64,000 bases of DNA from Balanoglossus misakiensis (Eukaryota; Animalia; Hemichordata): assembly GCA_040954595.2 (NCBI GenBank), contig CM082583.2, forward strand, positions 1,870,925-1,934,924, read 5' to 3'. The notes beneath the pieces were generated by a model. It saw nothing but the letters and a program-made list of their open reading frames with translations, was not told where the DNA came from and did not search any database. Below, piece by piece: positions 1-53,000 of this stretch (its first letter is position 1; each line of letters opens with the position of its first letter). The position numbers and the translations under genes were made by a program.

Positions 1-465
1 ATCTCAAAATGGAGACTTGGGGTAGTTGAAGATGCATGCACAAGTCATTTACTCTAACGCTTATAACACATGCATCACACAGCTACCAAAGATATCAAAA
101 AGCAGGTTTTACAGATTTCACACATTGCAACTATATGGAAATAAAAAACTGAGCAGTACACTGTAGACTTTCATTAATTGTCAGAATCAACACCTATTTA
201 ACACCCACGAGGTCCCAATGACATTTAAACATAAAACCAACGGTGAAAACTGACACTATCCAAATTACTTGTTGGATAAGAAACTGTGGATTTGAAATAT
301 GATCTGTGACGAAGAAATGTTCTTATCAAAGAGAATTATTGCCTGAATAAATGGTTTACGGGTCCTCGTGACAGGAGATCATTTGCCCTCCTGCGTTGGG
401 CAAATGTCCCCTTGCACTCGGGTCCATAACCCATGTAGTCCATGCAATAGTGTATAAATACTCAC

Positions 466-6244: not shown

Positions 6245-6417
6245 CTGTAATAAAAAAACACTCAAGGTCATGTTATACGACAAATATGATTTTAATCGAA
6301 TACCGCGGGCTATTAGTTTAGTGATCCATTCTTCATGTTGATATACGTTGAGCTACATGTATGCATGTGATAATCATATTACCTCCCAACGGATGTACGC
6401 CATTAGAGAAACATAAT

Positions 6418-13192: not shown

Positions 13193-14134
13193 GTGTAATG
13201 CTAACAAACCTACTATTAACGTCAACAAAACTAATTTCATGGTTATAAAATCACCTCAAAAGAAAATTGACTTACATGGCAATATATTTCTTTCTCATCA
13301 TATGATCGAGGAAGTTACATCGGCAAGTTATCTTGGTATTTCCATTGACCCATCACTTACTTGGACTTCACACGTGTAAAATGATATTTTGAAAATCAGC
13401 CCCAAAATTGGTGTCCTTTCTCGCATCAGACATTTTGTACCAAGGTCAATTCTTATCATGAACTATAACACATTTAACTTACTGCATCTAACGTATTGTC
13501 TAGAAATATGGGGTAATACTTACACTACATTATTAAATCCCATTCTCCGCCTACAGAAAAAAGCTGTTCGTCTTATTACGTTTTCTGACATCACTGTACA
13601 CTCCGAACCTTTATTCCGCCAACTAAATATATTAACTCTTCCGAAACTCATTAAATACTCTTCCTGTTTATTTATCTTTGATTCATTTAATAATATTTTC
13701 CCAACAAACATTTCCAACTATTTTGAAATCTTTACCCATACCTATTCTACTCGATCGCCTGGTTGTGGCAATCTTCGAATACCGAATGCTAGACTTAGTA
13801 TTACTCAACATAACATTGTCTTTTCTGCAGTCAAACAGTGGAATTCACTACCGTATCATCTCAAACATATAAAATCGAGATGTAATTTTCAAGGAGCTTT
13901 AAAATTATATTTATTAAATTTGTAAAAACTTTTCTGTTATGTCTTATAGGTTTCCTTTTTCACAACACTGTGTGATTATTTTGTAATTTTATTACTGTAA
14001 TTCCTGGGCCGTGGACTCGATTAGTCCATTTGGACTATTTCCATGGTCCTAACCAGATATAGACTCTTTTGTCTTACTTTTTTCGACGAATTGTAATTGT
14101 GTAACACTTAGCTTAAATGTATGTTCAACTCTAT

Positions 14135-23857: not shown

Positions 23858-24971
23858 TTCAAGGGAAAGGATATTTTCAACGCAAAAATCCCGGGTTTTC
23901 CCCTTTTCCCCACCGCCGTGTTTATATGATCAGTGCATCGCAATCAAGCAATGACGTAAACACGTCACAGCAGTTACGATACTTTCTATCCTCAAGGACA
24001 CTTCTGATCGCCCGAACGACAACTGCCCGGTAAAAGTGTATCCGGGATCTGTCCTTAGAATGACCCCAACCGACAGTTCACAACGTGACCTTCGCTATAT
24101 ACATCAGCATAGCATTTATACATGTACATGTATGCTATGACACGTTAACATACTGTACGCATTCAGCAGTATTCATGCAGACATACCGATACTTGATAAG
24201 GTGGGGGGGGGGGGGGTAACAAGACGTCGGGTACATATGATAAATGCACATAACATGATAAATTTTCAGACATTGGTCACCATTATTTCGTCAGCTGGCA
24301 CTACGAGATGAATGCTCAGAGAAAGAAATTAAAAGGGGAATTCCCCGCATATGAACTCTGAATAACCCCAGTGAATCAGAGGCTGTTGACTACTAACGAT
24401 TGACAGCTAAAACACGGCTTAGTGTTATTCCGAGGGTAAGTTCACTGAGATGCAAAATTGTAATAAAGACGAATGCGCAAAATATTTCCGTATTTGCCTA
24501 CAAGGCAGTTGTGTGTTTTTAATTTTTTTCCGCAAATAATGATTGCATTATTATTTGGACCCAGTGGCGAGTTCGCACACCATTTAATTTCAGTTACCGT
24601 GATATTGTTGAATTAGATATATTTCTTACTTTATTAAAATGTAACAAAACTGATACCCATCAACATATTACATGTTTGCTAATAAGGATATTCGTATTTT
24701 TAAAAAATGAACAAATTCGCCACTAACATCGAAAGACATCTTTGGGTAGATTGAATGATGAATAAGGTATTTATAGTTGTACTGCGATGAAAACAATACT
24801 CTTGTTTTTCATTCCTTTTAGTTACACACATCACCACGCTGAGTTTGCGCGGTGAGGTTTTATGAGTCACGCGAAGCCTCGGCAGAAAACAGAACACGGA
24901 ACGCGCGCACACCCGCACAAAGACGCGACTGCGGCAGCGTACTATAGTCTATGCAATCAACCGGGTGTGAC

Positions 24972-27900
24972 ATGGCGCTATATGAAATCGTCGAGCGGGT
25001 CTTGAGCGGCGCGTTTAAAAAGTATGGACGGTTCCTCTCGCGTTGTCCGTGGCTAGTCTTGTTCGTTGCATTTTTCTTGACCGGAGTGTTGGGTTTGGGG
25101 CTTTTGTTTACGGAGTCGGAAACCAACCTCGAGTACCTGTACACGCCGGAGAACAGCCGGGCCGTGCAAGACCGACGCCGGGTGGCGGCTTTGTTTCCCG
25201 ATGCAAGCGGCTCTGACTTCTACCCTCATCAATCAGCGTCTCTCGGTGTGTACGGAGATGTGATTTTTCTTGGTCGAAGAAGAGGGCAGAACGTTTTAAC
25301 CAGCGAAGTACTCAGTCAATCTCTGGTGGTTGACGAGTACGTAGCTAACATATCGCTCATAGTAGACAATACAGAATACAGTTATTACAACGTCTGTGCC
25401 AGGCGATCCGGTTCGTGCTACGTAAGCGGTATACATAGCCTACTCAACGGTACCGATGTGAGCACTTTCCTACAAAAGCAACTCACTTACCCCGTTGTTG
25501 AAATTGGTGCCGAGTCGGTATACCTACCAGCTATTTTGGGCGGCGTAACAGTCAGCGGAAAGTCAACTGTACAGTCTGCCGAAGCGTTCCGTGTGCGTTA
25601 CTATCTCCGAACTGATGGAGAATACAAAGACATCAGTCTGTTGTGGGAGAAGGAATTTCTGGCGAGGTTGTCTGAATGGAACGGCACGTCCATCCAGATC
25701 GCGTACTCCACCTCCGAGAGTTTGAGCAGCGAGCTGAATTCGGGACTGTCGGGCGACATCGTCCGGTTTTCCATCACGTTCGCTCTGATGATCACCTACG
25801 CAACGCTGGTGTGTGGCACAGGGAACTGCATCACCACCAGGAGTTGGCTGGCTTGCACGGGAGTCATCGCCGCTGCTTTTGCGATCCTGGCGTCCTACGG
25901 GTTCTGTTCCTACATTGGCGTGAAGAAGGTCAGCGTGGTCGATATCATGCCATTCCTTATCGTAGGTAGGTTTCCCGATATTATTGTAAAATGATTAGGC
26001 AAACCCTGCATTCTTTCTTGTAGTTTCGATATCAAACATTTGCATAATCCACCTTTAACACATACAGTTCACATGTGACTGAAATTTCCTCCTTTCACGT
26101 CATAAGACAACGTATCACGGCTTCATAGTATATTTGGTCAGAATTATTGGTAATATGTCACAAAACACAACGAGCATATTAATGTTAAAATCCTGCGAAG
26201 AAGAAATGAACGAGTGCGTGTTTAGTTCACAGAACAACCCAGCCATCAGAGAGGTCGCTAAGGTTCCCGGATGTTTGGGTCCGATCTTACACGCAGAATC
26301 AGAAAGGCTGGTTTTAGTGAAAAGGGAAAGTAATGATAACATGTTGTAATAACATTCACAATTCATAAATATTTGTAACAGAAATGAAAACAATACTTGT
26401 ATCGTAGTGTCAAAAGCTTATATAAATAGTTGTAGACGCAGCACCCTTTTTAGACTGCAATATACATCTATACCATCCGTATGAGTGTTTGGGTTTCAAC
26501 GTTCTGTACAATATATTATAACCATGGAATTGAAAAAGATTTCTCCATGCCTACTACGTACTTGCTCCTTGCGAGGAATATAGTTTTATCAGCGCCCTTC
26601 CTCCCCCCCTCTCCCCCTCCCCCTCCCTTCTTTGGTTGATTGCTTCCTTCCTTCCCTTGTTATTTTATGTATTTTTGCGGCGTGGAAAATTGAATCCTAC
26701 TTTCTTCTCACTCTTCCATTTTTCTCTCTCCATGCTAATGATTACAGGAATCGGAATTGATGACATGTTTCTGTTAATGTCTGGATGGCTTGAAACCAAA
26801 CCCTCGGACAAAGTTGCGGACAGAGTCAGCACTGCTTTGAGCATCTCTGCTGTCTCAATCACAATCACGTCGTTGACCGACCTTCTGGCGTTCACGATTG
26901 GAGCGACCAATGTTTTCCCGGCTGTCCGCAATTTCTGCATATACACTGGTAGGTGGCGTATTTGTTAAGGTAGCACGCGCCTCGGGGACAGATTTTCAGT
27001 AAAAAAATTATAGTCCTTCAAAGCGTTTAAGGACTGGTCAGTTTCTTCGGCTGGGGGCGGTGTATTCTATTTTGTGGATATCAAAAAGTGAATGAGCCCC
27101 CCACCTCATTGAACATGGGAAAAGTGAGTGATCCCCCATCACCCAATTCCAAAACAGAGTGCCCTCCCTATGTATTAACCCCCAGACCGAGGAAACTGAC
27201 AAATCCATTTTCATTGCTGTAATAACGTGTGTGAAGGTCTTCACCGTTTTGTTTTCACACATAAATTAATACACTATTCCCCCCTAGAATTAACACAGGT
27301 ATTGGCCACCATTTTGAATTTCTCAATGTCGCTTTCTCAAACGCAAGTTTGCATCGTGGCCCCTGCATGTACATGTACATGTATACTAACTGAGAGGTGC
27401 GTGCATGCGTGGATGAAATATTGTACCTTTAGTCCTAAGTCTGGAAAGTACTGGTATAGACTGGATATGATGACGTACATTTAGGCTAACCCAACAATTA
27501 ATGATTTTAGCAGCAAAACATGCAGAGCGCGGGCTTTCATCAGTTTTTTTCTTGTCTGCTATTTTCAGGCTTCGCAGTGATATGGTGTTATTTAATGCAG
27601 CTGACGGTCTTTGGGAGTTTCATGGTGTTCCACACGAGACGGGTGAAGGATGAGAAACACTGCTTCACGGGCGCAAAGATACCGGACGAGGAATCGTGCA
27701 AAGCACGCGGCAAAGTTTGGTACTGTAACTGGATTGTCTGGTGCCGGGGAATAGAATCAAAGAGTATAGAAAAAGACGAAGAAGACAGAAGCATTTTCGA
27801 GCGGTTTTCGGGGCCATTTGCATCATTCGTGAAACGTTGGCCTGTTAAAATAGCAGTTTTAGTTGTGTTTGCAGGATACTTGGGCGTTTCTATATGGGGT

Positions 27901-28992
27901 GCCAGTCAGTTACAGCAAGGTCTTTTGTTAAATAATCTTGTCCCACCAAGCTCCTATCTCCATTCCTACCTTATTCTCGACAATGACTATTTCGACACTA
28001 ATGGTCCTACTATTTCAGTCGTAATGGACGGCCCCCTAAGTTACTGGGATGAAGGCGTACAGGGAAAGATCAACAACTTACTCACGGAGATTCAGAGTGA
28101 CAATGACATAGTCCAAGACTCCAGCATATCCTGGCTCGACAGTTTCTCAAGTTTCCATAACAGATCGCCTCCCAGTGACTTGTCTACTTTCATTTACTCC
28201 CTTCAATTTGAATTCCTCCCGGCTTTTCCTGTCTTTGACAATGACGTGAAGATTTCTGATGATGGACAGGTGATAGCAGCGCGATTCTATGTCCGTTCCG
28301 TTGGACTGACCAGTTCAACCGACCAAGGCCAGATGATGCTACGAGTTCGGAAAATAACCGACAGCAGTGATTTGCCTGCATTCGCCTACACAGGCGCGTT
28401 CATTTTTTACGAGCAGTACGTTCAAGTACTACCGAGCACATTGCTAACTGTCGGCTGCGCTGTGGCGGCCATGTTTGTCGTCTGCATTTTCTTCATCCCC
28501 CACCCCCTCTGTGTTATTTACGTCACCATAACCATGGTGATGATTCTTGTCGGTCTGTTTGGTTTCATGCATTTCTGGGGTCTTTCTTTGAGCTCCATCA
28601 CTATGATACACATAGTCATTAGCATAGGTTTCAGCGTCGACTTTTGTGCGCATGTCAGTCATGCTTTCATGAAGGCTGATGGGAAAGATCGCAACGAGCG
28701 AGTCACGGTGGCCCTGTCTCGTGTTGCAGTACCCATCTTGAATGGTGGAATCTCCACCCTCCTCGGTGTAATCATGCTTGTAGACGCCAGTTCTTACGTA
28801 TTTCAGTCATTCTTCAGGATAATGGTTCTCACTATCCTCTTTGGGGTCGCGCATGCGCTTCTTTTCCTCCCTGTCTTGTTGTCGCTGATTGGTCCTTCCA
28901 AATCAGAGAAGAAAGAAATTTCATCTGGAAAAACAAAGGTACATCTCGAGCCAATTGGAAATGATAATTTAGCGATAGAGATTAAAGAGTGA
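24972..28992 (+). CDS. PTCHD3: Patched domain-containing protein 3-like (sterol-sensing domain, RND-family multipass transporter), about 872 aa
   Basis: Exons 24972-25965, 26748-26948 and 27569-28992, with two phase-1 GT-AG introns, 2619 nt in total (alternative ATG at 24951). Motifs: EYLYTPENSRA, LLWEKEFL, MPFLIVGIGIDDMF (TM4 GxxxDD), SITITSLTD..F.IG, FIFYEQY, ISIGFSVDFCAH, HALLFLPVLLSL. The symbol indicates family; orthology is untested. Confidence 0.93.
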
Positions 28993-33598: not shown

Positions 33599-34264
33599 TC
33601 ATTGCAACCTCTTTTTCAGTTCCATTGCCCAGGTCAGCAACTTGTCATGGTCGACACTCTCAAAGGTCAATGTTCTCTGCTTTGTCTTGATCTCGAAAAC
33701 GCAACAACCTGAAATATAATACAAACAAACAACATCCAATATTTCACGTCTTGACGGAAGACTGCTTTAAATTGAATTTTTTGTCAAGAACATTAAATGT
33801 AAATCAATTTAAACCTGTCACTATCATAGTTCAGTCATAGTCCGTAAAACTCAATTGTGGGAAGATGCGAACTAGCTTGTCCCTATAGTTTGTGAGATAT
33901 AACTGTCGGAACTACAATTTGACTGTATAAACAATAGCCCACAGCCAAATAAACCAAACTTTACACTACACTTAACCAAGCTACACTGCAGCTTAGAATT
34001 TCGCAAATTAGTGCCTGCATGTACACTACCGCTTTGTTGTAAATTGTTGTTTGCTGATGTATGTCACCATACTTTTTGCAGCAGTTGTTTACTGACCTGT
34101 GAAGTTGTACATGTTGATGACAGCCACATTTTGGAGAGCTATTCTTCTGTGCCTGCCATTTGATTGCCAAGTCAAATACTTCTTGCCACTAATCGGACAT
34201 CTTTGGATACACAGTTGTGTTTTATACTTGTATCCCTTGGACGTTCTCTTTGTCAGCCTCACGC
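33599..34264 (-). CDS. Two terminal PKS exons encoding a PH-like domain
   Basis: Exon 34264-34097 (GVRLTKRTSKGYKYKTQLCI..KYLTWQS..RRIALQNVAVI) and exon 33708-33599 (CVFEIKTKQRTLTFESVDHDKLLTWAMELKKRLQ*); pyrimidine-rich acceptors; both introns are phase 1, matching the donor at 34685. Confidence 0.72.
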
Positions 34265-37200
34265 CTACGAAAAGAGAATCAAAGTGGGAAGAATGGTTAT
34301 TGGTGTTCTTAGTCTTTGGTGTGATGATGTGATATCGACTGCATTGGGCGAATTTAAGTACCCTGTTTATTTGAACCATTTTCTATCAGTAACTCCGTAC
34401 CCAAACCCTAACCACCAAACAATTGATCAATCGAGCGATCGATCGACCGATCAATCTATCGTATATCTATCAAAAGAGAAAAAGATGCAACTTAAGCCAG
34501 CTATCAACCAACCAAGAAATACAATTATTAGTCAGTCAGTCAGTCATGCAGTATTCGGTCGGTCAGTAAGTTAGTCATCCAGTCACCTAGTCAATAAGTC
34601 AGACAATCATGCATAATTAACAAAATTTATGTCTGATGACCTGACATATATCAATGTTCTAACTTTAGCGAAATGGTCAAATTACCTTCTTCCAATTCTG
34701 GCCAAGAATGCTGTTTTTCCCCCACCAATTTGGACATATTGAGGTGTTCCTGCTCCCCGATGAGTAAATCTATGTTTCCATCATGAGCCAGGTCACCGTT
34801 CATAACAACGTGGTCGGTATATTCTTTACAGTTAGGTTTCCCAACATCCTGCCTGCCATTAAGGAGAGCAGAATCCAAACTTCCTTGTACTGTGCCCTTC
34901 TGCGCATGTGTCCTATATTTTGTGGTGACGTCATTGAGACTTCGATAACTCTCACTTACACACGTCGCCATGAGGTCTCTGTAATCACTGAAAAACTGTT
35001 GACCCTCTTGGTGGCTGATGCATGAAGTGTTGAACCCACACCGGAGCGAAAGCGTGCCTCGGTTTGCATTTCTAACAACTTCAATTCTCGTAATTTTACT
35101 TAAACCGACGAGACCTCCTTCGACATGCTCGACACCATCAACCACGTCTGCATCTCGTACCTCTTGAAATGCTGTGTGTTCCTCCCATGTAATAACGTGC
35201 TGATTGAGGGATTTGGGTTGGTCATCACCAGTCACCTTGACACACTCACAGATTTTGGACGTTGGGTAAAGACTGTGATGGACTCCAGATTTCACCCGGT
35301 CTCCTATTTCTTTAAGGAAATCAATAATTGGCATTTCCTTGTTCCCGAAGGTAACTCGCAAGAGGACATTGTTGATAAAGAAACCAACGACTTCAGAGCT
35401 GACGGGGACATGCATACGCATATTGACTGGGTAAGTGACCAATATGTCATTGGACTGAGAGTAGATGTTTAGAAGCATGGCGTATACAGCAATCATCAAT
35501 TGGAATGGGGTAATTCCTATTTTCTGTGCAAACCGTTTCAGGTTTGCCGCGGCTGTTGAATTGATCTCCAAGACAACATGGCCTACATCTACAGACACAG
35601 GATCTTGCATCATCAATGAGAACCTCCCAGGGGTGACATCAACAGGAGTGGCAAATATGTCCTCCCAGAATTGTCTCAGATACGTCGCCTGGGAATGAAG
35701 GAGCTGGCTTCGCTGTGCTAAATACTCGCCGAACTCGAATGATCTCCTCTGCTCGAATGAGTTATGCAACATCACTGCAATCAGGGCACGCCTGAAATCT
35801 CTCATAAGCGTTGTCAGGGAGAAGAAATCACAGGATATGTTGTGAACAACAATTCCAACGTGGGTTATCTGCTTCTCAATTTCTGCGAGAAAGACTCTGA
35901 TGGGGAAGTCATTCTGCAAGTCGAAAGGTAGCTTGCTTGCATGTCGTATTGAAGATACAGCCTCATCGTCATTAGATAGGCCAACAAGATGTCGAACGTC
36001 AGGATTAAAGTCTGAATGGATGTGGTACATAACATCAAAGACGTCATTATTGGATTTGCCTTGTTGGTATTTGGCTCTAAGCATAGCATGCTGCTGCATC
36101 AGTAGCTGTAGTACATCATGCCATTCCTTCTCAGTTGTGTCGAAGCCATGGATCCGAAATATGGCATACATGTTATTTGTGATGTCTGGGGGTGTTGCCT
36201 GTGTTTTATGGAATCTAAGAGCTTGATCCTCAACAACACTGCCAGTAACAATATCTGATGCACTATGAAACAACTTAGATGCATTTTCTCCATTCATGAC
36301 ACTGCCAATGTTATCCTGGATGTACAGGGAGATTTGAGATAACGTTGCTGTTTCTGCCAGCAGGAGCGCTATTGGAATGTTGACACCACATTTCTTCTTA
36401 AGATGAGTCTGCATTGTCATTGCTTGCATGGAATCTAATCCCAATGCAACAAGGGAGACATCTTCAAGGATTTCTTCTGTTTCCATTGCGAGCACATTGG
36501 CAACATCTGCCTTAACAAGGTCGTGCAGAAATGATGGTTGCTGACTCAAACTGTTGAAAGGTATGTTCCCGCGGTTTGTACTTTCTACCACGGCATCACT
36601 CTTTCTCCTTGTGTCGATGAAATTCTCAAAGCGCCTGCTGATGTGTGCAAGTTCAGATCTGTGCAGATCTTGTGATATACGACTCCAATTAAACTCCCCA
36701 AATAATACCTGAGAAGGATTGTACTTCAAGGTATATTCGAAGCACTTAATGATGTCAGCCACTGGTAATGGTAAGTATCCCATTGTAGTCAGCATTTTCT
36801 TGACATCTTTAACACTGTCTATGATGCCAATGTTAAGAGCGCTCCAGTTGATGGTTTGACCAGGGAGACCATTGCTTCTTCTGTACTGTGCAAGCTGGTC
36901 TAGAAATGCATTTCCAGCACCATAATTTGCCTGCCCTCTATTGCCAAAAACTGCAACAGTAGACGAATGCATCACAAAGTAATCCAGAGGATCATCCCTG
37001 GTTAGCTGATGGAGATTCCATGCACCAAGAATCTTTGGACGAGTTGCAGTGATGAATTCCTCATCTGACATATTTATCAACAGACGGTCTGCCAACACTA
37101 CTGCTCCATGGAATACTCCTTTGATGGGAATGGCACCCAACTGTTTTCTAAGGTTCTGCAAAACCTTTTCCAAGGCCTGGACATCACTAACATCTGCCTG

Positions 37201-40200
37201 AAGAAACCATAATCGTGTGCCTCCCATTTCTATCTCACTAAGTTCAGCTGACTTGCTTGTATCTGGGTGACTTCTGGACACTATTGCAAGGTGCCCTGCG
37301 CCTCGTTCAGCCATGTATTTACATGTCTCTAACCCCAGGCCCTTTGTACCCCCAACAACCAGGTAGCAGGCATTCTTGTGAAAGAGTCGATCTACATCTG
37401 CATGAACCAAGCCTCTAGAACGCATATTAAGTATAGGTATTGATTCATTGTCAATGGGTGGGACCACAGTACTGCACTCAGACTGATCGAAGTTGAATTC
37501 CTTTATGTTGAGTAGTTCTACATCACTTGTCTGTGACATTTTCTTCGACCACTTTACAACTTTTGGAATGATTTTATCCAGATGCTTTGCCTGGAGTACT
37601 TGCTTGGTGCTTACTGTAATAAACTTCATGTCTGGTCTTAACGTACCAAGGTAATCCGTTTGTGAGTCGTCTCCTCTTTCCACATTTACTACTACTGAAC
37701 CAATTCGAAGGTTGCTCAGAATCCATTGGTTCGATTTGTGTGACAGTTTTCCAAGATGGAGAAACACCACCTGTTGAAGCCCATTGGTTTTAGGTTCATC
37801 AGCATGACTGAAATGGTTACTAGATATTTCTTTGAAACCACACCTCCTGGCATATGACGAGAACAGACTAGTGAGACAGTTGTATTTCTTGGTGCTTTGT
37901 ATGATCAGCTGTCTTACAGTAGGGTATTGATGCAAGTTAACCACTAGCACTTCCCACAAGAGAACCATCAGGGACAGGCATGGTATTCCCCTCATCCACT
38001 CTGGGAGTACACTTGACTTCACAATCAGTGATTCTGGCACATTAGCTATTGATGTAAGCTTCATCGGATAGCAAATGTGTACTTTTGTACCTTGTGCAAA
38101 ACTACTATCAGAAGACAATATTTCGCCGAGGCAGTCAATCCCAATGACTGCGTGTCTGTCATTGCTGTCTTCTGACCATGGCAATGATCCTTTCAGTGAC
38201 AGCCCAGTCATAGTCACTTGAAATAACTCAGGGTCATGTAACCTGGCCTTTTGTATACTAGCACACACAAACTTCCCAGATGGGGTAGTGATGGCATCTT
38301 CCACTGCATAGTGTAGCTCAAGATTTAGAACACTCTCAGGAAGTGTTGACATCACTTCTGTTGGAAGATCTGGCTGGACTCCTATTACACGCTTCTTGAA
38401 ATAGGCATCATTTGGCTTGACCCTCTTCAGCTTATTGGCATAGACTGTAGAACCATGTATGACATACTCTGAATGCTGGTTTACTTGGCTTTCAAAAGAT
38501 ATCTGGGCCATTGTTGCAACTTCTACCTCAGAACCCTCACTCAGATCAATTAGTGTTGTCTTGTCATAGGTACCTTCACGGAGCAAACATCGAACCATTC
38601 CCCAAACAGGAGCACCGATCAACTGAATATGATTTGACTTTGGCATCGTAGATCTGAGTGCTGACCTTTCTGTTGTTTCAAGCTTGCCTTGGACACCACG
38701 GGTTACTACAGTCAATGGACACATTGCACCATTTGTGGCAAGAAACTTCACAATATGTTTAAGTGCCATGCATGTGGAATTAATGTAGTCGCACAGGAAT
38801 CCCTCGATGTTTTCCTCACCATCACGGATGCTCCAGAAGTAAAATATGTGTTGAAAAGTGTTGATGTCTCTCTGTACGTTTTGTAGTATTAGACCAATAT
38901 CTGTGTGTATATCAGAATACTCTACTATGTACGAATCACTGCTTATGAACTTCTCCAAAGAAGACACTATGCCCATGCTATCGGCAAACACAATGCAATT
39001 TGGAGGCAGGCCCTTCTCAGTACCATCTGTTTTGCTTGTTGTAACTGTGAGATTCGGGATACCATGTCTGAGCCACTCCATTTCATAAGCAAGTTGACCA
39101 ATTACTCTGCCATCGTTTTCATCCAGTACCTTTGCCATGATGTCTGTGCATTCTGCAACAACTTCACCTGACTCGTTCATGATGACTGCATTAAAACTAG
39201 CCAAGTAGTCTGACCTGCGCATCAGCCTGATGTAAACAAGGACACAAGGGTCAGGTTTCCCAAACACTAACACATTCCCAATCGAAATGGGGAAGCATGG
39301 TTTAGAATTCTTGTTGCCTTGGTGGTTTGGATCATATGTAGGCACAGCCGTAGCTTGGAGGACACCATCGAATATGACAGGATGAATAACTGTGTTACGC
39401 AGTTGGTCTAAAAGTTCTTCTGGTAATGACAGCATCACAACAGCTTCTTCTCCATTCCTCCAGCACTGTGAAATAGGTCGCATGGTTGGCCCATATGAAA
39501 AGCCAAAGCTTTCCAGAAAGTCATAAACTTGCTCCACATCTATCTCATCACCACAACGTGACCTGATTTCAGAAATATTGAAGCGGCTGGTTGGAGTTTG
39601 TTTCTTCGAGCTCACCCCGATGACACCATCAGCAGTTTTTATGTCACCGCAACAAACTTTGAAGGAATGGCTTTTTAAACCGTCACTTTGGTCCTCAAAT
39701 TGAACGTAGACATCCTTTTCTTCCTCTGTCAGCATCAGTGGTTTCAGAAACTCAATGGACAATCCGCAGCATTTTTGCCGTGTGTTTGGCAACAACGACA
39801 AGCAAGCTTCAAGGGCCAATTCACCATAGACTACACCAGGAACCACCACAGAACCACCAACAATGTGATCATACACAAATGGGAAGTCTCCTCTATTGAT
39901 TGTACATTTGTATGCCACATCATCAGCGGAGACCCTGGTCACAAATTGGCAATCAGTCCCACTGTCTTTCTTTATTCCCATTCTATACAGCTTCGAGGCT
40001 TCTGGTTCGTACCAGTGTTTGGCTTTGTTGAACTGATAAACCGGAAGATCTGCTGGAATTCGTTGACTGTGTTTGTGATATGAACCCCAGTCTATCTGGA
40101 TGCCTGTCTGGTAAAGCTGACAAAGGGTATCCAAGAGAGTAACGTGGCCCCTTTTCTCTTTCATAGATGGAAGAACTCTACCACTACATTTAGACACAAT

Positions 40201-43200
40201 TTCACTAATATTCCTCTGTAATGCAGGTTTGGGACCAACTTCTATTGTGATGTTTTCTGCATCTTCCAGGATGGCTGCCTCCATTGCCTTCGAGAATTGA
40301 ACTGCTTCTCGTACATTTCGTTTCCAATAGTGAGCATTTGTAAAGTCACCATCCACAGCAAGCCTACCTGTGACAGTGGAGTAAATCTCTGCCAGCTCTC
40401 CATTATCTGTAGTTTCCAGAGGATTTATCGAGTTTAGGAAGTCATTGCATATTGGCTGCACGTGGTGTGAGTGAAATGCTGTGGATACGTTGAGTCGACG
40501 GAAAAATATGTCCATACCCTCCTGTTGGTTTTCGATTGCAATCAGATTTTCGATTACAGTGATGGCGTCTTCATCTCCGGATAGTGTGAAAGACGTAGGT
40601 GAGTTAGTGGCAGCAATTTCCACCCGTCTGTCCACAGCTTGGCAATATTCATCAACTTTCTCGGCAGATGTGTTGCCCACAGCAGCCATTCCTCCTCCTG
40701 ACACTTTCTGCAGAAACTGACTCCTGTAGAATATTATCTTGACTGCGGTTTGGAGGTCTAGCTTCCCTGCTGCATATGCTGCCGCAACCTCACCAACTGA
40801 GTGACCGATTATCGCATCTGGTTTGATACCCCATGATACCCACAGGTGGTGAAGAGCCACTTCGATAGCAAATATCGCTACCTGTTTCATAGAGCCAGAG
40901 GCCAACTCTCCATGTCCGACAATATCAACAAGAGAATGGTCGGTGTATTTTGACAGTAGGCCAGCAATTTCTTCTATCGCCTCTCTAAAGGTGGATTCTT
41001 CAGCGAACAAATCACTTCCCATTCCTTTCCAGTCTGTACCCATTCCAGGAAAGACAAAAATAATTCTCTTTCGTCTGACAGTATTCGATGGATTTTGGTG
41101 ATATATCGCCTCTTCCGCCTTTTCCAAAATCTGGCATAAGCCGTCACTGTTAGTGGCGTGAATTGCAAATCGGTGGTTGTTGTAGTGTGAGCGCCGAGTA
41201 GTTGATGTATACGCCAAGTCGTCAATGAAATCGCTTGACTTGTTCTTTAATACATTTTTCAGGTACTGCATGGTCAACTTCATTGACCGCTTCGACTTTG
41301 CTGACAGGGTGATGATTGGGTGAACCACTGGTTTACTTTTTCGTAGGTCAACGTATTCTCTGACGATAGCATGTGAATTCGAACCACCAAAACCAAACGA
41401 ATTCACACAGGCTAATCGACCACGACCATCCTCTGTCTCCCATGCCGTTACCCTCGTTGGGATTTGTAACTGGAGGTCTTCCAAGTCTATTCGGCTGTTT
41501 GGCTTGTCGAAATGAATGGTCGGCGCGATCGTTCGGTTCTTGATCATCAGAAGCACTTTGATCAACCCAGCGACACCAGCTGCAGACTCCAGGTGAGCAA
41601 TGTTGCTTTTCACCGATCCCATGTAGCAGGGTGAAGCCCCGGGCTTTCGAGCTTTGCCTATGAAGTTGCCCAGGGACGATGCCTCAATGGGGTCCCCTAC
41701 AGGTGTGCCAGTACCATGTGCCTCGATGTAAGTCACGTCACAAGGGTCAACGTTATATTTAGTGTAAACTTTGTGTAGAAGCTGTTCCTGTTGTTTGGAA
41801 GAAGGGGCCGTTATGGGTGTAGCAAAGTGACCATCCTGGTTGCAGCCAGTTCCAACGATTCCCCAAATTCTGTCACCATCGCTTATGGCCTAATTTTCAA
41901 ATTAAAGTAAGTGTTAGTTTCAAAGACACAACCAATTTCTTAACCATCTTCTTACGTTTCTAGAGGAATGTGGTTGGAAATTCCAACTCATGATAGGTGG
42001 GTACGACGATATACCTATTACAGACTGCAAGTCACTAAATAGGTGCAAACAATAGGCAATTCATTAGTCTGTGTGAGTTTGCATACGAGACCAAACCTTC
42101 TCTTGCTGGTGGGGAAATATCACAAAATGCCTGTTATTTTTTTACCTTCTGCAGAGACTTCAAAATAACAACGCCACAGCCTTCTCCTCTTGTGTAACCA
42201 TCTGCCTTGTCAGAAAACGGCTGACACAGACCTGTCGATGATAACATGTTTGCTCTGCACAAGGTAACAAATACTTTTGGATCCAGAATAATGTTGACGC
42301 CACCACACACAGCTATTTCACAGTCTCCTAAAATGCAAATAATAATGTGTTGGTGACGTTGATGTTGGTTCAGAACGGCCTTAGTGTAACTATATACCCT
42401 GGGGAAAGAGAACAAACGACTGTGGAAAAGATCTGAGATTGTGCTGGATAATACCTTTGTTTTCACGCATTATGTCCATACATTCGACGGTTCGACGTTA
42501 AACAAACGCACCTGCACGTATACCTTGACATCCAAGATGGATGCCTATCAGGGAGGACGAACAGGCTGTATCCACACAAATGGATGGCCCCGTCAAGTTC
42601 AGGGCAAACGACAGGCGGTTTGCTACGATAGACGTTGCAGCGCCAGTCACTGTGTAATTGTCCCGCTCGCTCACGTCTGAACCAATCAAATTCCCGTAGT
42701 CATTGGCCATCACACCTAAGCAATATTAAGGGAAATTTCTGGTCTGCTTGTATGTGCTATCGCATAAAAAATATTGTAGTTATAGTTATACTCGAGCAAG
42801 ACCTTCCATCAGTAGCACTGGCAAACCTGTACATAATTATGGGTATCATTATAAAAATCCTCAAATCAGCATTACCTCAGAAGTATGTGAGGACTGCATG
42901 TACTATGCTTTTTGAGGAAATCACCACCGACACTATTGTTAACTGAAGTAAAGTCTACCGAGCCAAATAACGAGAATATATTGGCTGCCTTCGGAAGTAA
43001 TTTCTAAATTTCACGTATACTGCGATTTGCCATTTCAGGACGTATCTTTGACGAAATTAGTCCAAGTCTTACCGATGTAGCAACCGACTTCCATCCCTGA
43101 TAGTTTGTCCATGGGAAACCCGCCGTTTTCCAAAGCCCGATATGTACATTCCAGCAACACATATTGTTGTGGATCCATTCGGGCTGCCTCATCGTCGTTG

Positions 43201-43569
43201 ATTTGAAAGAATCGATTGTCCCATTCAGTCAGCCTAGTGATATAATGGAAGGACCATCAAAGCCCCAGTAACTCTTACTTTTCGTCAGATTTTAGTATTT
43301 TTTTCTGACTCGTCCATTAATTAAATTATCATTTATCATCCAAAAACACAATACCTCTCGATAAATGCCGCATGCCTGGCATAAGATTTGCCTTTGGCAC
43401 TTCTGTCGCTGCTGTAGAAAGCGTCGACGTTCCATCTGTCCTTGGGTATTTCAGTCACATGGTTTTCCCCGTTCACCAAGACTCGCCAGAACTCATCTAT
43501 GTCGTTCGCACCAGGGAACTTGCAGGCCAACCCCACGACTGCAATGGCGTCTTCCGAGTCTGGATCCAT
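33599..43569 (-). CDS. pks: Animal type I (iterative) polyketide synthase, KS-AT-DH-pseudoER-KR-ACP-condensation-like-PH-like, about 2747 aa
   Basis: Phase-consistent GT-AG exons: 43569-43355, 43233-43073, 42715-42512, 42327-42146, 41889-34686, 34264-34097, 33708-33599 (8244 nt). KS: DTACSSS, EAHGTGT, KSNIAHLE. AT: GHSVG, AFHS. DH: HIVGGSVVVP, DGVLQ. KR: GGTKGLG, GQANYGAGN. ACP: GLDSM. C-like: HAMLR, PFDLQNDFPIR, HNISCD, VGFFINNVLLR. Confidence 0.93.
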
Positions 43570-43826: not shown

Positions 43827-44073
43827 GTAAATGTGAACTGTTTGATTGTTATCTGAGAGGGCTTCAGTTGTAGAAAACTACATGTTGTCTTTCTTTCAAA
43901 CATTTCCCGGATGTGCCCCCGGTTCCGCCGGACACAAAGTTCAACAAGCGAATACAGAACTTTTAAACTTGTTTAGTCAAACAGGCATTTGTTGTATTAC
44001 ACATTTTCCACGTGACCATCTTCTTTGTCCCGCGAGAATGCTGATCAAAGCATCGGTTGCTTATACTCCGAAG

Positions 44074-47000
44074 GCCATATTGGATTTTCTGAAAAAATTC
44101 AAATCTCAGATCTCAGAAACTACAAGTCAGATCGACTTCAAATTTGGTATACAGGTAGACTACCTTCTGCCCATCATTTTTGTAATTGGAAATTTTGCTA
44201 CAATGTTGCAGTTTTTTTGCTACAATTTTTTTTCTGAAATCTGGCTTAAATTTCAAAAATCTTCTTCTCCAGAACCGGTGATAACCGAGTCACGCGGTTT
44301 GGGGTATGTGGTCACCTAACTGATGTCTATCAAGTTTGCGAAGATCATTGTGATTGGTCGAAGATTATGGCGGCCATATTGGATTTTAGAAAAACCATAG
44401 TTAAACTCCAAAAATCTTCTTCTCCAGAACGGGCGATGACTGAGTCGCAAGATTCGGGGAGTATGGTCACTACACTGATGTCTATCAAGTTTGCAAAGAG
44501 CATTGTGATTGGTCGAAGATTATGGCGGCCATATTGGATTTTGTAAAAAGCAGTGAAAAATTGAAATTCCTTTTTCTAGTCTAAAAATTGATAGCATACA
44601 AATTCTTTTTATGGATATCAATCGTCATGTGACTAAAATATGTTACAATTTTTTGGCGATTTTTCACATGACCTTTGACCTACTTATCATGCGTTATTAT
44701 TTCTGCATATCTAATTCCAGGCTAACCTATAGGGCTAGACGTTTGGTTTTTGATGAATGTGGATTAGTGTGTGATCAAAATATTTTGCTACTTTTCATGA
44801 CCCCTTTGACCTCTGCTGACCTCATTAATTATGTGCATAGCTAATTACAGGCGAACCAATAGAGCTAGAGGTTTGGTTTTTGTTGGACACAGACCAGTAT
44901 GGGATCAAAATTTTTTGCCCAAATGTTGCGTGACCTCTGGTGACCTTTGACCTACTTTCGCATATCTCAGCATCCAGAGCAGATACAGCCATGGCATTTG
45001 GTAGGATGGGACCAAAATGTAAAGCCACATTTTTGAGTCACCTGTGACACCTGCTGACCTCATTAAATATGCACATACCTAATTACAGGCGAACCTATAG
45101 AGTTAGAGTTTTGTTTTTTGTTGGACATGGACCAGTATGGGTAAAAAAAAAATTGCCCAAATGTTGGGTGACCTCAGGTGACTTTTGACCTACTTCACCC
45201 TATTTCAGCAGCAAAAATACACACCTCCTTGTTATGTCATGAGATAATACATCGGATAGAAAATTCTGTTTCTTCTCATTCACACTGTGCATATATAATT
45301 CAAGATCAGCGCTTGGGCCCGACAATGCTGCTTGCAGCTTTAATTAGGGCCCAAGCGCAAGCAAGCGCTTGGGCCCTATTGGTTTCGTTGGGGTTTTTAG
45401 GGCCCAAGCGCAAGCCAGCGCTTGGGCCCTATTGGTTTCGTTGGGGTTTTTCTTTCTTCTTTCTTTATTCTTGTGTCAATTCTTTGTCGCTCTAGATCTC
45501 AGACACCACTGCAGGTACACTTCTGAAACTTGCTACAGTGGTCAAGGTCAATGAGTAGTTGTGCATTGAACCCATGAATTTTTAATTAGTCACATGACCT
45601 GGCGGCCATCTTGGATTTTCTGAAAAAATGCAAATCTCAGATCTCAGAAACTACAAGTCAGATCGACTTCAAATTTGGCGTGCAGGTAGACTACCTTCTG
45701 TCAAACATTTTTGTAATTGGAAATTATGCTGTCAATGTTGCAGTCTTTTTGCTACAATTTTTTTTCTGAAATCTGGCTTAAATTTCAAAAATCTTCTTCT
45801 CCAGAACCGGTGATAACCGAGACATGGGGTTTGGGGTATGTGGTCACCTAACTGATGTCTATCAAGTTTGCGAAGATCATTGTGATTAGTCGAAGATTAT
45901 GGCGGCCATATTGGATTTTCGAAAAACCCTAGTAAAATTTCAAAAATCTTCTTCTCGAGAACCGGCGATAACCGAGTCACAAGATTTTGTGTGTGTGGTC
46001 ATTCAACAGATGTCTATCAAGTTTGCGAAGAGGAATGTGATTGGTCGAAGATTATGGCGGCCATATTGGATTTTGTGAAAAACAATTAAAAAGTAAAAAT
46101 TCCCTTTCTAGCCTAAAAATTGATAGCACAGAAATTCTTTTTATGGATATGAATCATCATATAACAAGAATAAGCTATAAATATTTTGGTAATTTTGGCA
46201 ATGACCTTTGACCTACTTTTGACGCATCAATTTTCTGCATATCTAATTCCAGGCTAACCAATAGGGCTATAAGTTTGGTTTTTGATGTATGTGGATTTGT
46301 ATGTGATCAAAAAATTTTGGTACTTTTCATGACCCCTTTGACCTCTGCTGACCTCATTAAATATGCGCATACCTAATTACAGATGAACCAATAGACCTAG
46401 AGGTTTTGTTTTTGTTGGACAGGACAAGTATAGGGTCAAAATTTTTTACCCAAATTTTGGGTGACCTCTGGTGACCTTTGACCTAATTTCGCAAATCTCA
46501 GCATCCACAGCAGATACAGCCTTGGCGTTTGGAGGTATGGGGCCATAATGAAAAGCCAAAGTTTTGGGTCACCTGTGACACCTGCTTAACTCATTATTTA
46601 TGTGCATACCTAATTCCGGGCTAACCAAAAGGGTTAGAGGTCTGGTTTTTGTTGGACATGGACCACTATGGGTCAAAATTTTCTGCCCAAACTGTGGGTG
46701 ACCTCTGACCTACTTAACACTATATCAGCACTAAACATAGATATAATCTTGATATTTCATGGGATAAAACACAGCATTATGTTTCTACTCATTAATTATG
46801 TGCATATCTAATAATCAGATCAGATAATAGAGCTTGGGCCCGGACAATGCTGCTTGCAGCTTTAATTCTGTCTTTCTTTCTTCTTTCTTTACGGGCCCAA
46901 GCCAAGCCAGGCTTGGGCCCGTATTGGTTTCGTTGGGGTTTTTTAGGGCCCAAGCCAAGCCAGGCTTGGGCCCTATTGGTTTCGTTGGTATTTTTCAGTC

Positions 47001-50000
47001 TTTCTTTCTTTCTTTCTTTATTCTTATGTCAATTCTTTGTCGCTCTAGATCTCAGACACCACTGCAGGTACAGTTTTCAAACTTGCTACAGTGGTCAAGG
47101 TCAATGAGTAGTCGTGCATTGAACCCATGAATTTTTAATTAGTCACGTGACCTGGCGGCCATATTGGATTTTCTGAAAAAATGCAAATCTCAGATCTCAG
47201 AAACTACAAGTCAGATCGACTTCAAATTTGGCGTGCAGGTAGACTACCTTCTGTCAATCATTTTTGTAATTGGAAATTATGCTGACAAAGTTGCAGTTTT
47301 TTTGCTACAATTTTTTTTCTGAAATCTGGCTTAAATTTCAAAAATCTTCTTCTCCAGAACCGGTGATAACCGAGACACGGGGTTTAGGGTATGTGGTCAC
47401 CTAACTGATGTCTATCAAGTTTGCGAAGATCATTGTGATTGGTCGAAGATTACGGCGGCCATATTGGATTTTCGAAAAACCCTAGTAAAATTTCAAAAAT
47501 CTTCTTCTCAAGAATCGGCGATAACCGAGTCACAAGATTTGGTGTGTGTGGTCATTAAACAGATGTCTAACAAGTTTGCGAAGGGGAATGTGATTGGTCG
47601 AAGATTATGGTGGCCATATTGGATTTTGTGAAAAACGATTAAAAAGAAAAAATTCCCTTTCTAGCCTAAAAATTGATAGCACAGAAATTCTTTTTATGGA
47701 TATGAATCATCATATGCCAAGAATAAGCTATAAATATTTTGGTAATTTTGGCAATGACCTTTGACCTACTTTTGACGCATCATTTTTCTGCATATCTAAT
47801 TCCAGGCTAACCAATAGGGTTATAAGTTTGGTTTTTGATGTATGTGGATTTGTATGTGATCAAAAAATGTTGCTACTTTTCATGACCCCTTTGACCTCTG
47901 CTGACCTCATTAAATATGCACATACCTAATTACAGGTGAACCAATAGACCTAGAGGTTTTGTTTTTGTTATACATGGACCAGTATGGGGTGAAACTATTT
48001 TGCCCAAATGTTGGGTGACCTCGGGTGACCTTTGACCTACTTTTGCATATCTTGACATCCACAGCAGATACAGCCTTGGCGTTTGGAGGTATGGGGCCAT
48101 AATGAAAAGCCAAAGTTTTGGGTCACCTGTGACACCTGCTTACTCATTATTTATGTGTATACCTAATTCTGGGCTAACCAAAAGGGCTAGATATCTGGTT
48201 TTTGTTGGACATGGACTACTATGGGTCACAATTTTCTGCCCAAATTGTGGGTGACCTCTGGGTGACCTTTGACCTACTTAACACTTTATCAACACCAAGC
48301 ATAGATATAACCTTGATATTTTATGGGGTAAAACACAGCATTATGTTTCTACTCTTTAATTATGTGCATATCTAATAATCAGATCAGATAATAGAGCTTG
48401 GGCCCGGACAATGCTGCTTGCAGCTTTAATCTTTCTTTATTCTTGGTTCACTTCTTTGTCGCTCTAGATCTCAGACACCACTGCAGGTACAGTTCTCAAA
48501 CTTGCTACAGTGGTCAAGGTCAATGAGTAGTAGTGCATTGAACCCATGAATTTTTAATTAGTCACATGACCTGGCGGCCATCTTGGATTTTCTGAAAAAA
48601 TGCAAATCTCAGATCTCAGAAACTACAAGTCAGATCGACTTCAAATTTGGCGTGCAGGTAGACTACCTTCTGGCAATCATTTTTGTAATTGGAAATTATG
48701 CTGTCAATGTTGCAGTTTTTTTGCTACAATTTTTTTTCTGAAATCTGGCTTAAATTTCAAAAATCTTCTTCTCCAGAACCGGTGATAACCGAGACACGGG
48801 GTTTGGTGTATGTGGTCACCTAACTGATGTCTATCAAGTTTGCGAAGATCATTGTGATTGGTCGTAGATTATGGCGGCCATATTGGATTTTCGAAAAACC
48901 ATAGTAAAACTCAAAAAATCTTCTTCTCCAGAACGGGCGATAACTGAGTCGCAAGATTCGGGGAGTTTGGTCACTTCACTGATGTCTATCAAGTTTGCAA
49001 AGAGCATTGTGATTGGTCGAAGATTATGGCGGCCATATTGGATTTTGTTAAAAGCAGTGAAAAATTGAAATTCCTTTTCCTAGTCTAAAAATTGATAGCA
49101 TACAAACTCTTTTTATGGATATCAATCGTCATGTGACTAAATTATGTTACAATTTTTTGGCGATTTTTCACATGACCTTTGACCTACTTTTCACACGTTA
49201 TTATTTCTGCATATCTATTTCCAGGCTAACCTATAGGGCTAGACGTTTGGTTTTTGATGCATGTGGATTAGTGTGTGATCAAAATATTTTGCTACTTTTC
49301 ATGACCCCTTTGACCTCTGCTGACCTCATTAATTATGCACATAGCTAATTACAGGCGAACCAATAGAGCTAGAGGTTTGGTTTTTGTTGGACATGGACCA
49401 CTATGGGAACAAAATTTTTTGCCCAAATGTTGGGTGACCTCTGGTGACCTTTGACCTACTTTCGCATATCTCAGCATCCAGAGCAGATAGAGCCTTGGCA
49501 TTTGGCAGGATGGGGCCAAAATGTACAGCCACATTTTTGGGTCACCTGTGACACCTGCTGACCTCATTAAATATGCACATACCTAATTACAGGCGAACCT
49601 ATAGAGTTAGAGTTTTGTTTTTTGTTGGACATGGACCAGTATGGGTAAAAAAAAAATTGCCCAAATGTTGGGTGACCTCAGGTGACTTTTGACCTAGCAA
49701 GCGCTTGGGCCCTATTGGTTTCGTTGGGGTTTTTAGGGCCCAAGCGCAAGCCAGCGCTTGGGCCCTATTGGTTTCGTTGGGGTTTTTCTTTCTTTACGGG
49801 CCCAAGCCAAGCCAGGCTTGGGCCCGTATTGGTTTCGTTGGGGTTTTTCTTTCTTTCTTTCTTTCTTTCTTTATTCTTGGTTCACTTCTTTCGCGCTCTT
49901 GATCTCAGACACCGCTGCAGGTACAGTTCTCAAACTTGCTACAGTGGTCAAGGTCAATGAGTAGATGTGCAGTGACTTGTGAATACTTAATTAGTCACGT

Positions 50001-53000
50001 GACATGGCGGCCATATTGGATTTTCTGAAAAAATGCAAATCTCAGATCTCAGAAACTACAAGTCAGATCGAGTTCAGATTTGGCGTGCTGGTAGTATACC
50101 CTCTGCCCATCATTTTTGTAATTGGATATTTTGCTGTCAATGTTGCAGTTTTTTTGCTACAGTTGTTTTTCTGAAATCTGGTCAAAATTTCAAAAATCTT
50201 CTTCTCCAGAACCGGCGATAACCGAGTCACGCCGTTTGGGGTATGTGGTCACCTAACTGATGTCTATCAAGTTTGCAAAGATCATTGTGATTGGTCGAAG
50301 ATTATGGCGGCCATATTGGATTTTCGAAAAACCATAGTAAAACTTCAAAAATCTTCTTCTCCAGAACGGGCGATAACCGAGTCACAAGATTTGGTGTGTG
50401 TGGTCATTAAACAGATGTCTATCAAGTTTGCGAAGGGGAATGTGATTGGTCGAAGATTATGGCGGCCATATTGGATTTTGTGAAAAACGATTAAAAAGTA
50501 AAAATTCCTTTTCTAGCCTGAGAATTGATAGCACAGAAATTCTTTTTATGGATATGAATCATCATATGACAAGAATAAGCTATAAATATTTTGGTAATTT
50601 TGGCAATGACCTTTGACCTACTTTTGACGAATCATTTTTCTGCATATCTAATTCCAGGCTAACCAATAGGGCTATAAGTTTGGGTTTTGATGTATGTGGA
50701 TTTGTATGTGATCAAAACATTTTGCTACTTTTCATGACCCCTTTGACCTCTGGTGACCTCATTAAAAATGCGCATACCTAATTAATGATGAACCAATAGA
50801 CCTACAGGATTTGGTTTTGTTATACATGGACCAGTATGGGGTCAAAATATTTTGCCCAAATGTTGGGTGACCTCGGGTGACCTTTGACCTACTTAACACT
50901 ATATTAGCATCAGATCAGATAATAGAGCTTGGGCCCGGACAATGCTGCTTGCAGCTTTAATCTTTCTTTATTCTTGTGTCAATTCTTTGTCGCTCTAGAT
51001 CTCAGACACCACTGCAGGTACACTTCTGAAACTTGCTACAGTGGTCAAGGTCAATGAGTAGTTGTGCATTGAACCCATGAATTTTTAATTAGTCACATGA
51101 CCTGGCGGCCATCTTGGATTTTCTGAAAAAATGCAAATCTCAGATCTCAGAAACTACAAGTCAGATCGACTTCAAATTTGGCGTGCAGGTAGACTACCTT
51201 CTGTCAAACATTTTTGTAATTGGAAATTATGCTGTCAATGTTGCAGTTTTTTTGCTACAATTTTTTTTCTGAAATCTGGCTTAAATTTCAAAAATCTTCT
51301 TCTCCAGAACCGGTGATAACCGAGACATGGGGTTTGGGGTATGTGGTCACCTAACTGATGTCTATCAAGTTTGCGAAGATCATTGTGATTAGTCGAAGAT
51401 TATGGCGGCCATATTGGATTTTCGAAAAACCCTAGTAAAATTTCAAAAATCTTCTTCTCGAGAACCGGCGATAACCGAGTCACAAGATTTTGTGTGTGTG
51501 GTCATTCAACAGATGTCTATCAAGTTTGCGAAGAGGAATGTGATTGGTCGAAGATTATGGCGGCCATATTGGATTTTGTGAAAAACAATTAAAAAGTAAA
51601 AATTCCCTTTCTAGCCTAAAAATTGATAGCACAGAAATTCTTTTTATGGATATGAATCATCATATAACAAGAATAAGCTATAAATATTTTGGTAATTTTG
51701 GCAATGACCTTTGACCTACTTTTGACGCATCAATTTTCTGCATATCTAATTCCAGGCTAACCAATAGGGCTATAAGTTTGGTTTTTGATGTATGTGGATT
51801 TGTATGTGATCAAAAAATTTTGGTACTTTTCATGACCCCTTTGACCTCTGCTGACCTCATTAAATATGCGCATACCTAATTACAGATGAACCAATAGACC
51901 TAGAGGTTTTGTTTTTGTTGGACAGGACAAGTATAGGGTCAAAATTTTTTACCCAAATTTTGGGTGACCTCTGGTGACCTTTGACCTAATTTCGCAAATC
52001 TCAGCATCCACAGCAGATACAGCCTTGGCGTTTGGAGGTATGGGGCCATAATGAAAAGCCAAAGTTTTGGGTCACCTGTGACACCTGCTTAACTCATTAT
52101 TTATGTGCATACCTAATTCCGGGCTAACCAAAAGGGTTAGAGGTCTGGTTTTTGTTGGACATGGACCACTATGGGTCAAAATTTTCTGCCCAAACTGTGG
52201 GTGACCTCTGACCTACTTAACACTATATCAGCACTAAACATAGATATAATCTTGATATTTCATGGGATAAAACACAGCATTATGTTTCTACTCATTAATT
52301 ATGTGCATATCTAATAATCAGATCAGATAATAGAGCTTGGGCCCGGACAATGCTGCTTGCAGCTTTAATTCTGTCTTTCTTTCTTCTTTCTTTCTTTCTT
52401 TATTCTTGTGTCAATTCTTTGTCGCTCTAGATCTCAGAGACCACTGCAGGTACACTTCTGAAACTTGCTACAGTGGTCAAGGTCAATGAGTAGTCGTGCA
52501 TTGAACCCTTGAATTTTTAATTAGTCACATGACCTGGCGGCCATCTTGGATTTTCTGAAAAAATGCAAATCTCAGATCTCAGAAACTACAAGTCAGATCG
52601 ACTTCAAATTTGGCGTGCAGGTAGACTACCTTCTGCCCATCATTTTTGTAATTGGAAATTATGCTGTCAATGTTGCAGTTTTTTTGCTACAATTTTTTTT
52701 CTGAAATCTGGTCAAAATTTCAAAAATCTTCTTCTCCAGAACCGGTGACAACCGAGACACGGGGTTTGGTGTATGTGGTCACCTAACTGATGTCTATCAA
52801 GTTTGCGAAGATCATTGTGATTGGTCGTAGATTATGGCGGCCATATTGGATTTTCGAAAAACCATAGTAAAACTCAAAAAATCTTCTTCTCCAGAACGGG
52901 CGATAACTGAGTCGCAAGATTCGGGGAGTTTGGTCACTTCACTGATGTCTATCAAGTTTGCAAAGAGCATTGTGATTGGTCGAAGATTATGGCGGCCATA

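Follow-up and report, generated by a model that had tools for sequence, protein, structure and literature searches.

Animal polyketide synthases (PKSs) are tied to pigments, to otolith and spicule mineralisation, and to defence. Those of molluscs, as set out in the main text of Lin et al. (2024; PMC10764717), are single-module type I enzymes with or without a condensation (C) domain, and their genes concentrate introns at the N-terminal end and carry one large exon (for general background on PKSs, see the sections of the review PMC7036892). Table 2 of Hojo et al. (2015; PMC4604110) gives Saccoglossus LOC100373061 as KS*-AT-DH-KR-ACP-C-AMP, and passages of the same paper place medaka OlPKS at the apical surface, with a secreted lipophilic product and a role in otolith biomineralisation, and present it as a protein of 2051 aa that ends at ACP, without a C domain or a pleckstrin homology (PH) domain. 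The hemichordate gene considered here shares the catalytic core KS-AT-DH-KR-ACP with OlPKS, its intron arrangement with the mollusc genes, and its family with LOC100373061 (P0251) and the amphioxus PKS-C-AMP hybrids, from which it differs in lacking an AMP-binding (A) domain. In addition, its last two exons are predicted to encode a divergent PH domain.

The gene occupies the minus strand of a 64,000-nucleotide stretch of Balanoglossus misakiensis DNA, referred to below as the window, in which the following features were placed.

43355..43569, minus strand: PKS exon 1, KS N-terminus, ATG at 43569 (tblastn with the Ptychodera protein P0001, fitted splice sites)
43073..43233, minus strand: PKS exon 2, KS (tblastn with P0001, fitted splice sites)
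42512..42715, minus strand: PKS exon 3, KS with the catalytic Cys motif TACSSS (fitted splice sites)
42146..42327, minus strand: PKS exon 4, KS (fitted splice sites)
34686..41889, minus strand: PKS exon 5, 7204 nt (Pfam, catalytic motifs); by Pfam it opens with the KS C-terminus, followed by AT at about 41061-40108, DH at about 39930-39118, a region without a Pfam match, KR at 37371-36835, ACP at 36519-36319, C at 36174-34924 and then a linker
34924..36174, minus strand: NRPS-type condensation (C) domain (PF00668, E 6.9e-31)
34687..34923, minus strand: unconserved linker of about 79 aa between C and the predicted PH domain (alignment to relatives)
34265..34685, minus strand: intron 5, 421 nt, GT-AG, phase 1 (sequence)
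34097..34264, minus strand: exon 6, 56 codons (168 nt), predicted PH strands 1-5 (strands from the homolog model)
33709..34096, minus strand: intron 6, 388 nt, GT-AG, phase 1 (sequence)
33599..33708, minus strand: exon 7, predicted PH strands 6-7, Trp-containing helix and stop (homolog model)
24948..28992, plus strand: Patched/NPC1-type RND gene with a sterol-sensing domain, convergent with the PKS gene (Pfam; best E 3e-37 to PTCH1)

The long PKS open reading frame (41889-34651, minus strand) runs for 2412 codons and holds, by Pfam, the KS C-terminus, AT, DH, KR, ACP and C, while the complete seven-exon model comprises 8244 nt and encodes 2747 aa, its sole stop being the terminal one. Intact PKS motifs include TACSSS, EAHGTG, NIAH, GHSVG, AFHS, the DH His/Asp, the KR Tyr and GLDS, and the gene is a single-module animal type I PKS of the order KS-AT-DH-KR-ACP-C. 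In a quick KS tree, built with no animal FAS row and carrying long-branch warnings, the window KS is sister to that of Ptychodera (SH-aLRT 96), then to that of Glandiceps (99), inside an animal clade (100) that stands apart from bacterial KSs. The search with the C region returned one animal match among 83, and the representative search mainly bacterial multi-module PKSs. The canonical active-site motif of NRPS condensation domains is HHxxxDG; in both the window and Ptychodera the corresponding residues are HNISCDF (HNxxxD, with Asn for the second His), and most relatives depart from the canonical motif too, such that many animal PKS C domains may not catalyse condensation in the usual manner. 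Pfam finds no A domain in the long open reading frame, and the gap from C to the PH domain spans only some 79 aa. Two further observations concern the C region of relatives: the residues preceding xxxD are highly variable (SH, NH, HK, HA, NS and others), and two tandem C-like regions stand ahead of the PH tail in P0246 (Argopecten) and P0270 (Patella).

The original prediction held that a donor at 34685 leads from the long exon into two phase-1 exons, and every coordinate of that chain matches: both introns are GT-AG and the frame stays open to the stop. Specifically, the exon 5 donor reads GAAG/GTAATT with the intron starting at 34685, the pyrimidine-rich acceptor of exon 6 ends in CGTAG ahead of 34264, the exon 6 donor reads ACAG/GTCAGT, and the likewise pyrimidine-rich acceptor of exon 7 ends in TTTCAG ahead of 33708, with the TGA at 33601-33599. 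In this model exons 6 and 7 contribute 93 residues to the PKS C-terminus. That they are part of the PKS, as had been proposed, is supported by Glandiceps talaboti XP_078000620.1 (P0084), the best match of the representative search, in which the equivalent tail is uninterrupted; the spliced window tail aligns with it over 91 residues, with no gap at either junction (46.6 bits, E 4e-14), and the two tails are 37% identical over 93 columns.

A profile seeded from the Glandiceps tail and iterated over 360 proteins gathered 48 proteins, all with the match near the C-terminus; the E-values of these members are inflated, the profile having been built from them, and a first round with P0084 alone found 15. 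The window tail was kept out of the profile and reaches 47 bits against it. When the 2126 six-frame peptides of the window are scanned, exons 6 and 7 are the sole significant matches (iE 1.6e-5 and 4e-5; next 0.42), and the best reversed-protein control reaches E 3.8. Of the phase-compatible two-exon chains in the 2 kb past the donor, 1399 in all, the predicted one scores highest (50.1 bits, next 42.1). Furthermore, four Logan proteins (P0249, P0265, P0266, P0334) run from KS to the tail as a single open reading frame on contigs of 6.8-9.2 kb that scarcely exceed the coding length and are probably assembled transcripts. Several mollusc gene models diverge from the family sequence at, or within one residue of, the junction columns, often as Gly-Lys (P0248 against P0215 and P0254 against P0249 at junction 1; P0261 against P0259 and P0281 at junction 2). 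Since Gly-Lys is what read-through into a phase-1 GTAAG donor would be expected to give, these departures suggest, at the level of protein sequence, that the intron positions are common to the window and mollusc PKSs. Scans of metagenomes for relatives' DNA (intron positions, neighbours) found none. Taken together, the alignments indicate that the last two exons are probably spliced onto the long exon.

Searched singly, exon 6 finds no match in the word-indexed protein search, the Atlas, PDB sequences or Pfam, being too short and divergent, and the best PDB sequence match of exon 7 is 2dhk (TBC1D2) at E 0.28. Beyond the exon 5 donor the reading frame runs for 11 codons to a stop at 34653-34651, inside intron 5. 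An AATAAA also lies in intron 5, at 34371 on the minus strand, 280 nt past that stop; it could mark a short isoform without the PH domain, or be chance.

The fold of the tail was predicted for the Glandiceps homolog, to which the joined window peptide is related by sequence alignment. AlphaFold2, given a 37-row alignment with Glandiceps as first row and window exons 6 and 7 as separate rows, returned seven strands and a C-terminal helix (E8-13, 19-28, 35-41, 44-49, 53-61, 64-71, 75-80, H83-97) at pLDDT 92.5 and pTM 0.81. Compared with 48,161 chains by VIA-align, the model is closest to ISP1 (Z 12.7, rmsd 1.8, 94 aligned), followed by MTMR6, DAPP1 (rmsd 2.1, 90 aligned) and ARAP3 (rmsd 2.4, 87 aligned) at Z 12.2 and by PLC-beta2, SIN1 and USP37 at 12.0; across these top seven rows Z ranges from 12.7 to 12.0, with 85-94 of 98 residues aligned at rmsd 1.8-2.5 A. 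Most of the 50 VIA-align rows are titled PH, PTB or FERM or presumably carry such a fold. The top Foldseek rows are PH domains at probability 1.00 (best E 1.0e-3, no row falling below 0.001), the first Atlas match of the tail is a PH cluster (0.90), and a 38-row tail profile finds the PH domains of GRK2 (E 1.2e-4) and ARAP2/3 among PDB sequences, in a range of E 1e-4 to 2e-3. The C-terminal helix of the window tail has the conserved Trp; across 42 tails that residue is Trp in 27 and Phe in six. The three structural approaches thus bear out, on the Glandiceps tail, the hidden PH-like domain first read from the window, and the tail is predicted to be a divergent domain with a PH fold. Against solved PH domains (Toxoplasma ISP1 and ISP3, DAPP1, ARAP3, TAPP1, PLC-beta2, GRK2) it shares the fold, at Z 11.8-12.7 and rmsd 1.8-2.7 A, with only 9-16% identity. 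Sequence matches of single tails to BRAP2 and ARL3 were weak and found no backing in the fold searches. The tail as a subdomain of C was ruled out as well, the tail also occurring without C.

Conventional domain scans largely pass over this tail. The Pfam PH model matches 8 of 37 tail rows at E<=0.01 (best 1.4e-5), and the Glandiceps tail scores 15 bits against PF00169, for which the curated cut-off is 25.1 bits. PF00169 matches neither window exon singly, no Pfam PH match at E<=1 appears in full-length scans of seven PKS proteins, and PF00169 occurs in none of 120 precomputed Pfam lists of related PKSs. Full-length Pfam scans thus miss the tail, and the domain has been overlooked. LOC100373061 ends in a PH tail (residues 2952-3048, E 9e-17), which the table of Hojo et al. 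(2015) leaves out. Similarly, many of the bivalve enzymes of the kind treated by Lin et al. (2024) end in the tail, yet the word pleckstrin occurs neither in the main text of that paper nor in 11 of its 18 supplement files. In the full-text literature searched, a body distinct from subscription papers and from InterPro and CDD, where a PH-like superfamily match may already be flagged, no description of a PKS with a PH tail was found, in agreement with the first reading of the locus, which had known of no PKS ending in such a domain.

The tail is found far beyond the window gene and proves to be a family-wide feature, so that the finding is larger than originally supposed. In a sample consisting of the best 120 of 7964 matches, the 92 single-module animal-type PKSs include 47 with the tail, and the 28 multi-module PKSs (bacterial where named) include none. 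Named carriers include Glandiceps, Saccoglossus, Branchiostoma, many bivalves and Patella, and the chiton Liolophura gives two matches, one partial (P0215) and the other weaker (P0282, E 4e-5). Four further Patella tails (P0301, P0303, P0310, P0318; E 0.004-1.4, against a best reversed control of 0.076) resemble divergent members by eye and were left out of the 47. The other 45 of the 92 gave no strong tail match; Ptychodera, Lingula, most gastropods and the sole fish protein are among them. The gene model of the closest KS relative, Ptychodera P0001, stops after C. Some of these tail-less relatives are probably truncated gene models and others true losses. The domain ahead of the tail varies: it may be C, C with a degenerate A (Saccoglossus P0251), A (amphioxus P0320 and P0322) or ACP directly (P0288, P0329, P0334), such that the tail is independent of C.

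Carriers are spread over most clades of a 92-row KS tree, with 17 state changes when the weak Patella tails are scored as present; this tree left out P0251, P0196 and P0354 (short KS) as well as P0285 and N-truncated rows. In the tree of the tails the three hemichordates fall together (SH-aLRT 95), and its branching follows that of the KS tree (Mantel rho 0.58, 0 of 999 permutations; nearest neighbours agree in 33 of 39), so that the fusion is probably ancient; both trees carry long-branch warnings. As these trees stand, the simplest reading is a single old fusion followed by repeated loss, and we infer that the fusion is older than the split between molluscs and deuterostomes.

Across 42 full tails a signature of the family's own is conserved, F-x-K-[QE]-T-x-x-G-W-x-H-x-V (F in 37, K in 38, T in 36, G in 38, W in 31, H in 37, V in 32), together with a strand-3 Trp that is invariant (42 of 42) and a strand-7 Arg in 33; the signature and the invariant Trp set the tail apart from the solved PH domains. 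The window tail has Tyr at the position of the signature His and keeps the core Trp, Arg and Phe. Its net charge of +12 is the second highest of the 42, for which the median is +5, and six tails are at or below zero. Sections of PMC4975593 present KXn(K/R)XR in the strand 1-2 region as a motif of phosphoinositide-binding PH domains; in its strict form it occurs in none of the 42 tails, a further difference from the solved PH domains, and in a relaxed form with Lys as last residue it occurs in two, the window tail and P0322. Among human PH proteins, according to the relevant sections of PMC8282632, 36 of 67 bound phosphoinositides and the motif failed to separate binders from non-binders. With about half of human PH proteins non-binding and the motif uninformative, a PH fold and charge would predict little; in VIA-align, moreover, protein-binding PH-like folds (FERM F3, PTB, TFIIH p62, SSRP1) lie within about 1 Z unit of lipid binders. 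The original prediction that a basic PH domain could dock the synthase on phosphoinositide membranes therefore stands only in part: the window tail is indeed strongly basic, but several tails are neutral and the strict motif is missing throughout.

The same prediction had placed the synthase next to its exporter. The Patched/NPC1-type RND gene is compact, with apparently three coding exons, and lies 4.6 kb from the PKS gene; its role as exporter of the PKS product is conjecture. Elsewhere in the window, a tandem array of units of about 1.4-1.7 kb, 85-99% alike and with 11 copies of a marker 14-mer, extends over 44000-59700 and begins roughly 0.5 kb upstream of the start codon of the PKS gene. 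The array is abutted by a DUF3504 open reading frame (59700-60389, minus strand, E 8e-23), a domain we take to be tyrosine-recombinase-like and typical of Crypton-type elements. A multi-exon gene at 400-6300 on the minus strand includes an ARM-like open reading frame (1482-2306) with a weak ARMC5 match and others resembling neuralized-homology repeats by eye, and fragments at 12945-13925 on the plus strand resemble, again by eye, the remains of a non-LTR reverse transcriptase, with no Pfam match over 13380-13922.

What the tail does for the synthase can be approached through the reading that, on the whole, we hold to be somewhat probable, namely that it serves as an address tag that targets the PKS to a membrane with low lipid specificity. 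The KS-AT-DH-KR-ACP core would act iteratively and would yield a partly reduced, lipophilic polyketide, which the non-canonical C domain may offload, unless that domain is structural. The PH domain, held on a flexible linker, would attach, with low specificity, to anionic lipid headgroups by means of a site peculiar to the family and made up of the Lys-x-Thr of strand 1, the His of strand 2 and the Arg of strand 7. It would anchor the enzyme probably jointly with a membrane protein, and the polyketide would thereby be made beside the membrane that it enters or crosses. By analogy, the apical location of OlPKS makes membrane placement of a PKS plausible; that enzyme, having no PH domain, also indicates that such a domain is unnecessary for apical location. 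More tentatively, and with appreciably less assurance, it may be proposed that an ancestral bilaterian PKS took a PH domain from the signalling toolkit as a targeting or switching device for a specific membrane, possibly under signal control and beside an RND-type exporter.

Next in order comes the view, which we consider rather doubtful, that the PH tail is no lipid binder and instead a protein-binding adaptor acting through its K-x-T-x-x-G-W-x-H surface, with a small GTPase, G-beta-gamma, a scaffold, a transporter tail or a tailoring enzyme as candidate partner. The residues conserved on that surface are Thr, Gly, Trp and His, with no basic cluster, the strict lipid motif is absent, folds of the PTB, FERM and SIN1 kind stand near the top of VIA-align, and among PDB sequences the tail profile fits best the PH domain of GRK2, which binds G-beta-gamma. 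Weighing against it are the strongly basic window tail and the retention of the strand-1 Lys and strand-7 Arg, positions that, in domains of the DAPP1 type, probably border the canonical phosphate pocket. An adaptor role is nonetheless compatible with targeting to lipid, and the two need not exclude each other.

Less probable again, and in our estimate improbable, is a role within the synthase itself, in which the tail would bind phosphopantetheinyl-ACP or acyl-CoA, or pack on the last catalytic domain, and so affect release or regulation. The C domain of the window and Ptychodera, lacking the canonical second His, leaves the release chemistry open, and the tail has descended together with KS and keeps its Lys/His/Arg site; the occurrence of three different last domains, with unconserved linkers of varied length, argues against fixed packing, however, and no tail was detected in many close paralogues. 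Finally, it is very improbable that exons 6 and 7 are vestigial or confined to a minor isoform, the main transcript stopping at 34651 and being polyadenylated in intron 5, or that they form a separate gene: the read-through stop, the AATAAA at 34371, the long PH branch of the window (1.07), its Tyr for His and the Ptychodera model ending after C would fit such a view, but the exons are open, in phase, gap-free against Glandiceps and intact in their core residues, a lone AATAAA is no surprise in an AT-rich intron of 421 nt (the estimated odds of a chance occurrence are about 1 in 3), and a separate gene would have to fit its promoter and first exon into 421 nt. Membrane targeting accordingly heads the order of readings, followed by the protein adaptor, the intramolecular role and the vestige or minor isoform.

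The PKS-PH arrangement joins a known fold to a known enzyme family in an architecture that is real, conserved and, apparently, undescribed, with a signature of its own. A conserved, separately foldable domain of 95 residues in about half of the invertebrate members examined offers a handle on where these PKSs are placed. Published PKS domain lists, such as that of Saccoglossus LOC100373061, can be corrected, and PKS gene models or expression constructs that end after the big exon are possibly truncated. More broadly, the finding suggests how an assembly line of microbial type may have come to suit animal cells, through the gain of a module of the signalling kind; if true, the PH tail would be a eukaryote-specific localisation module within a megasynthase.
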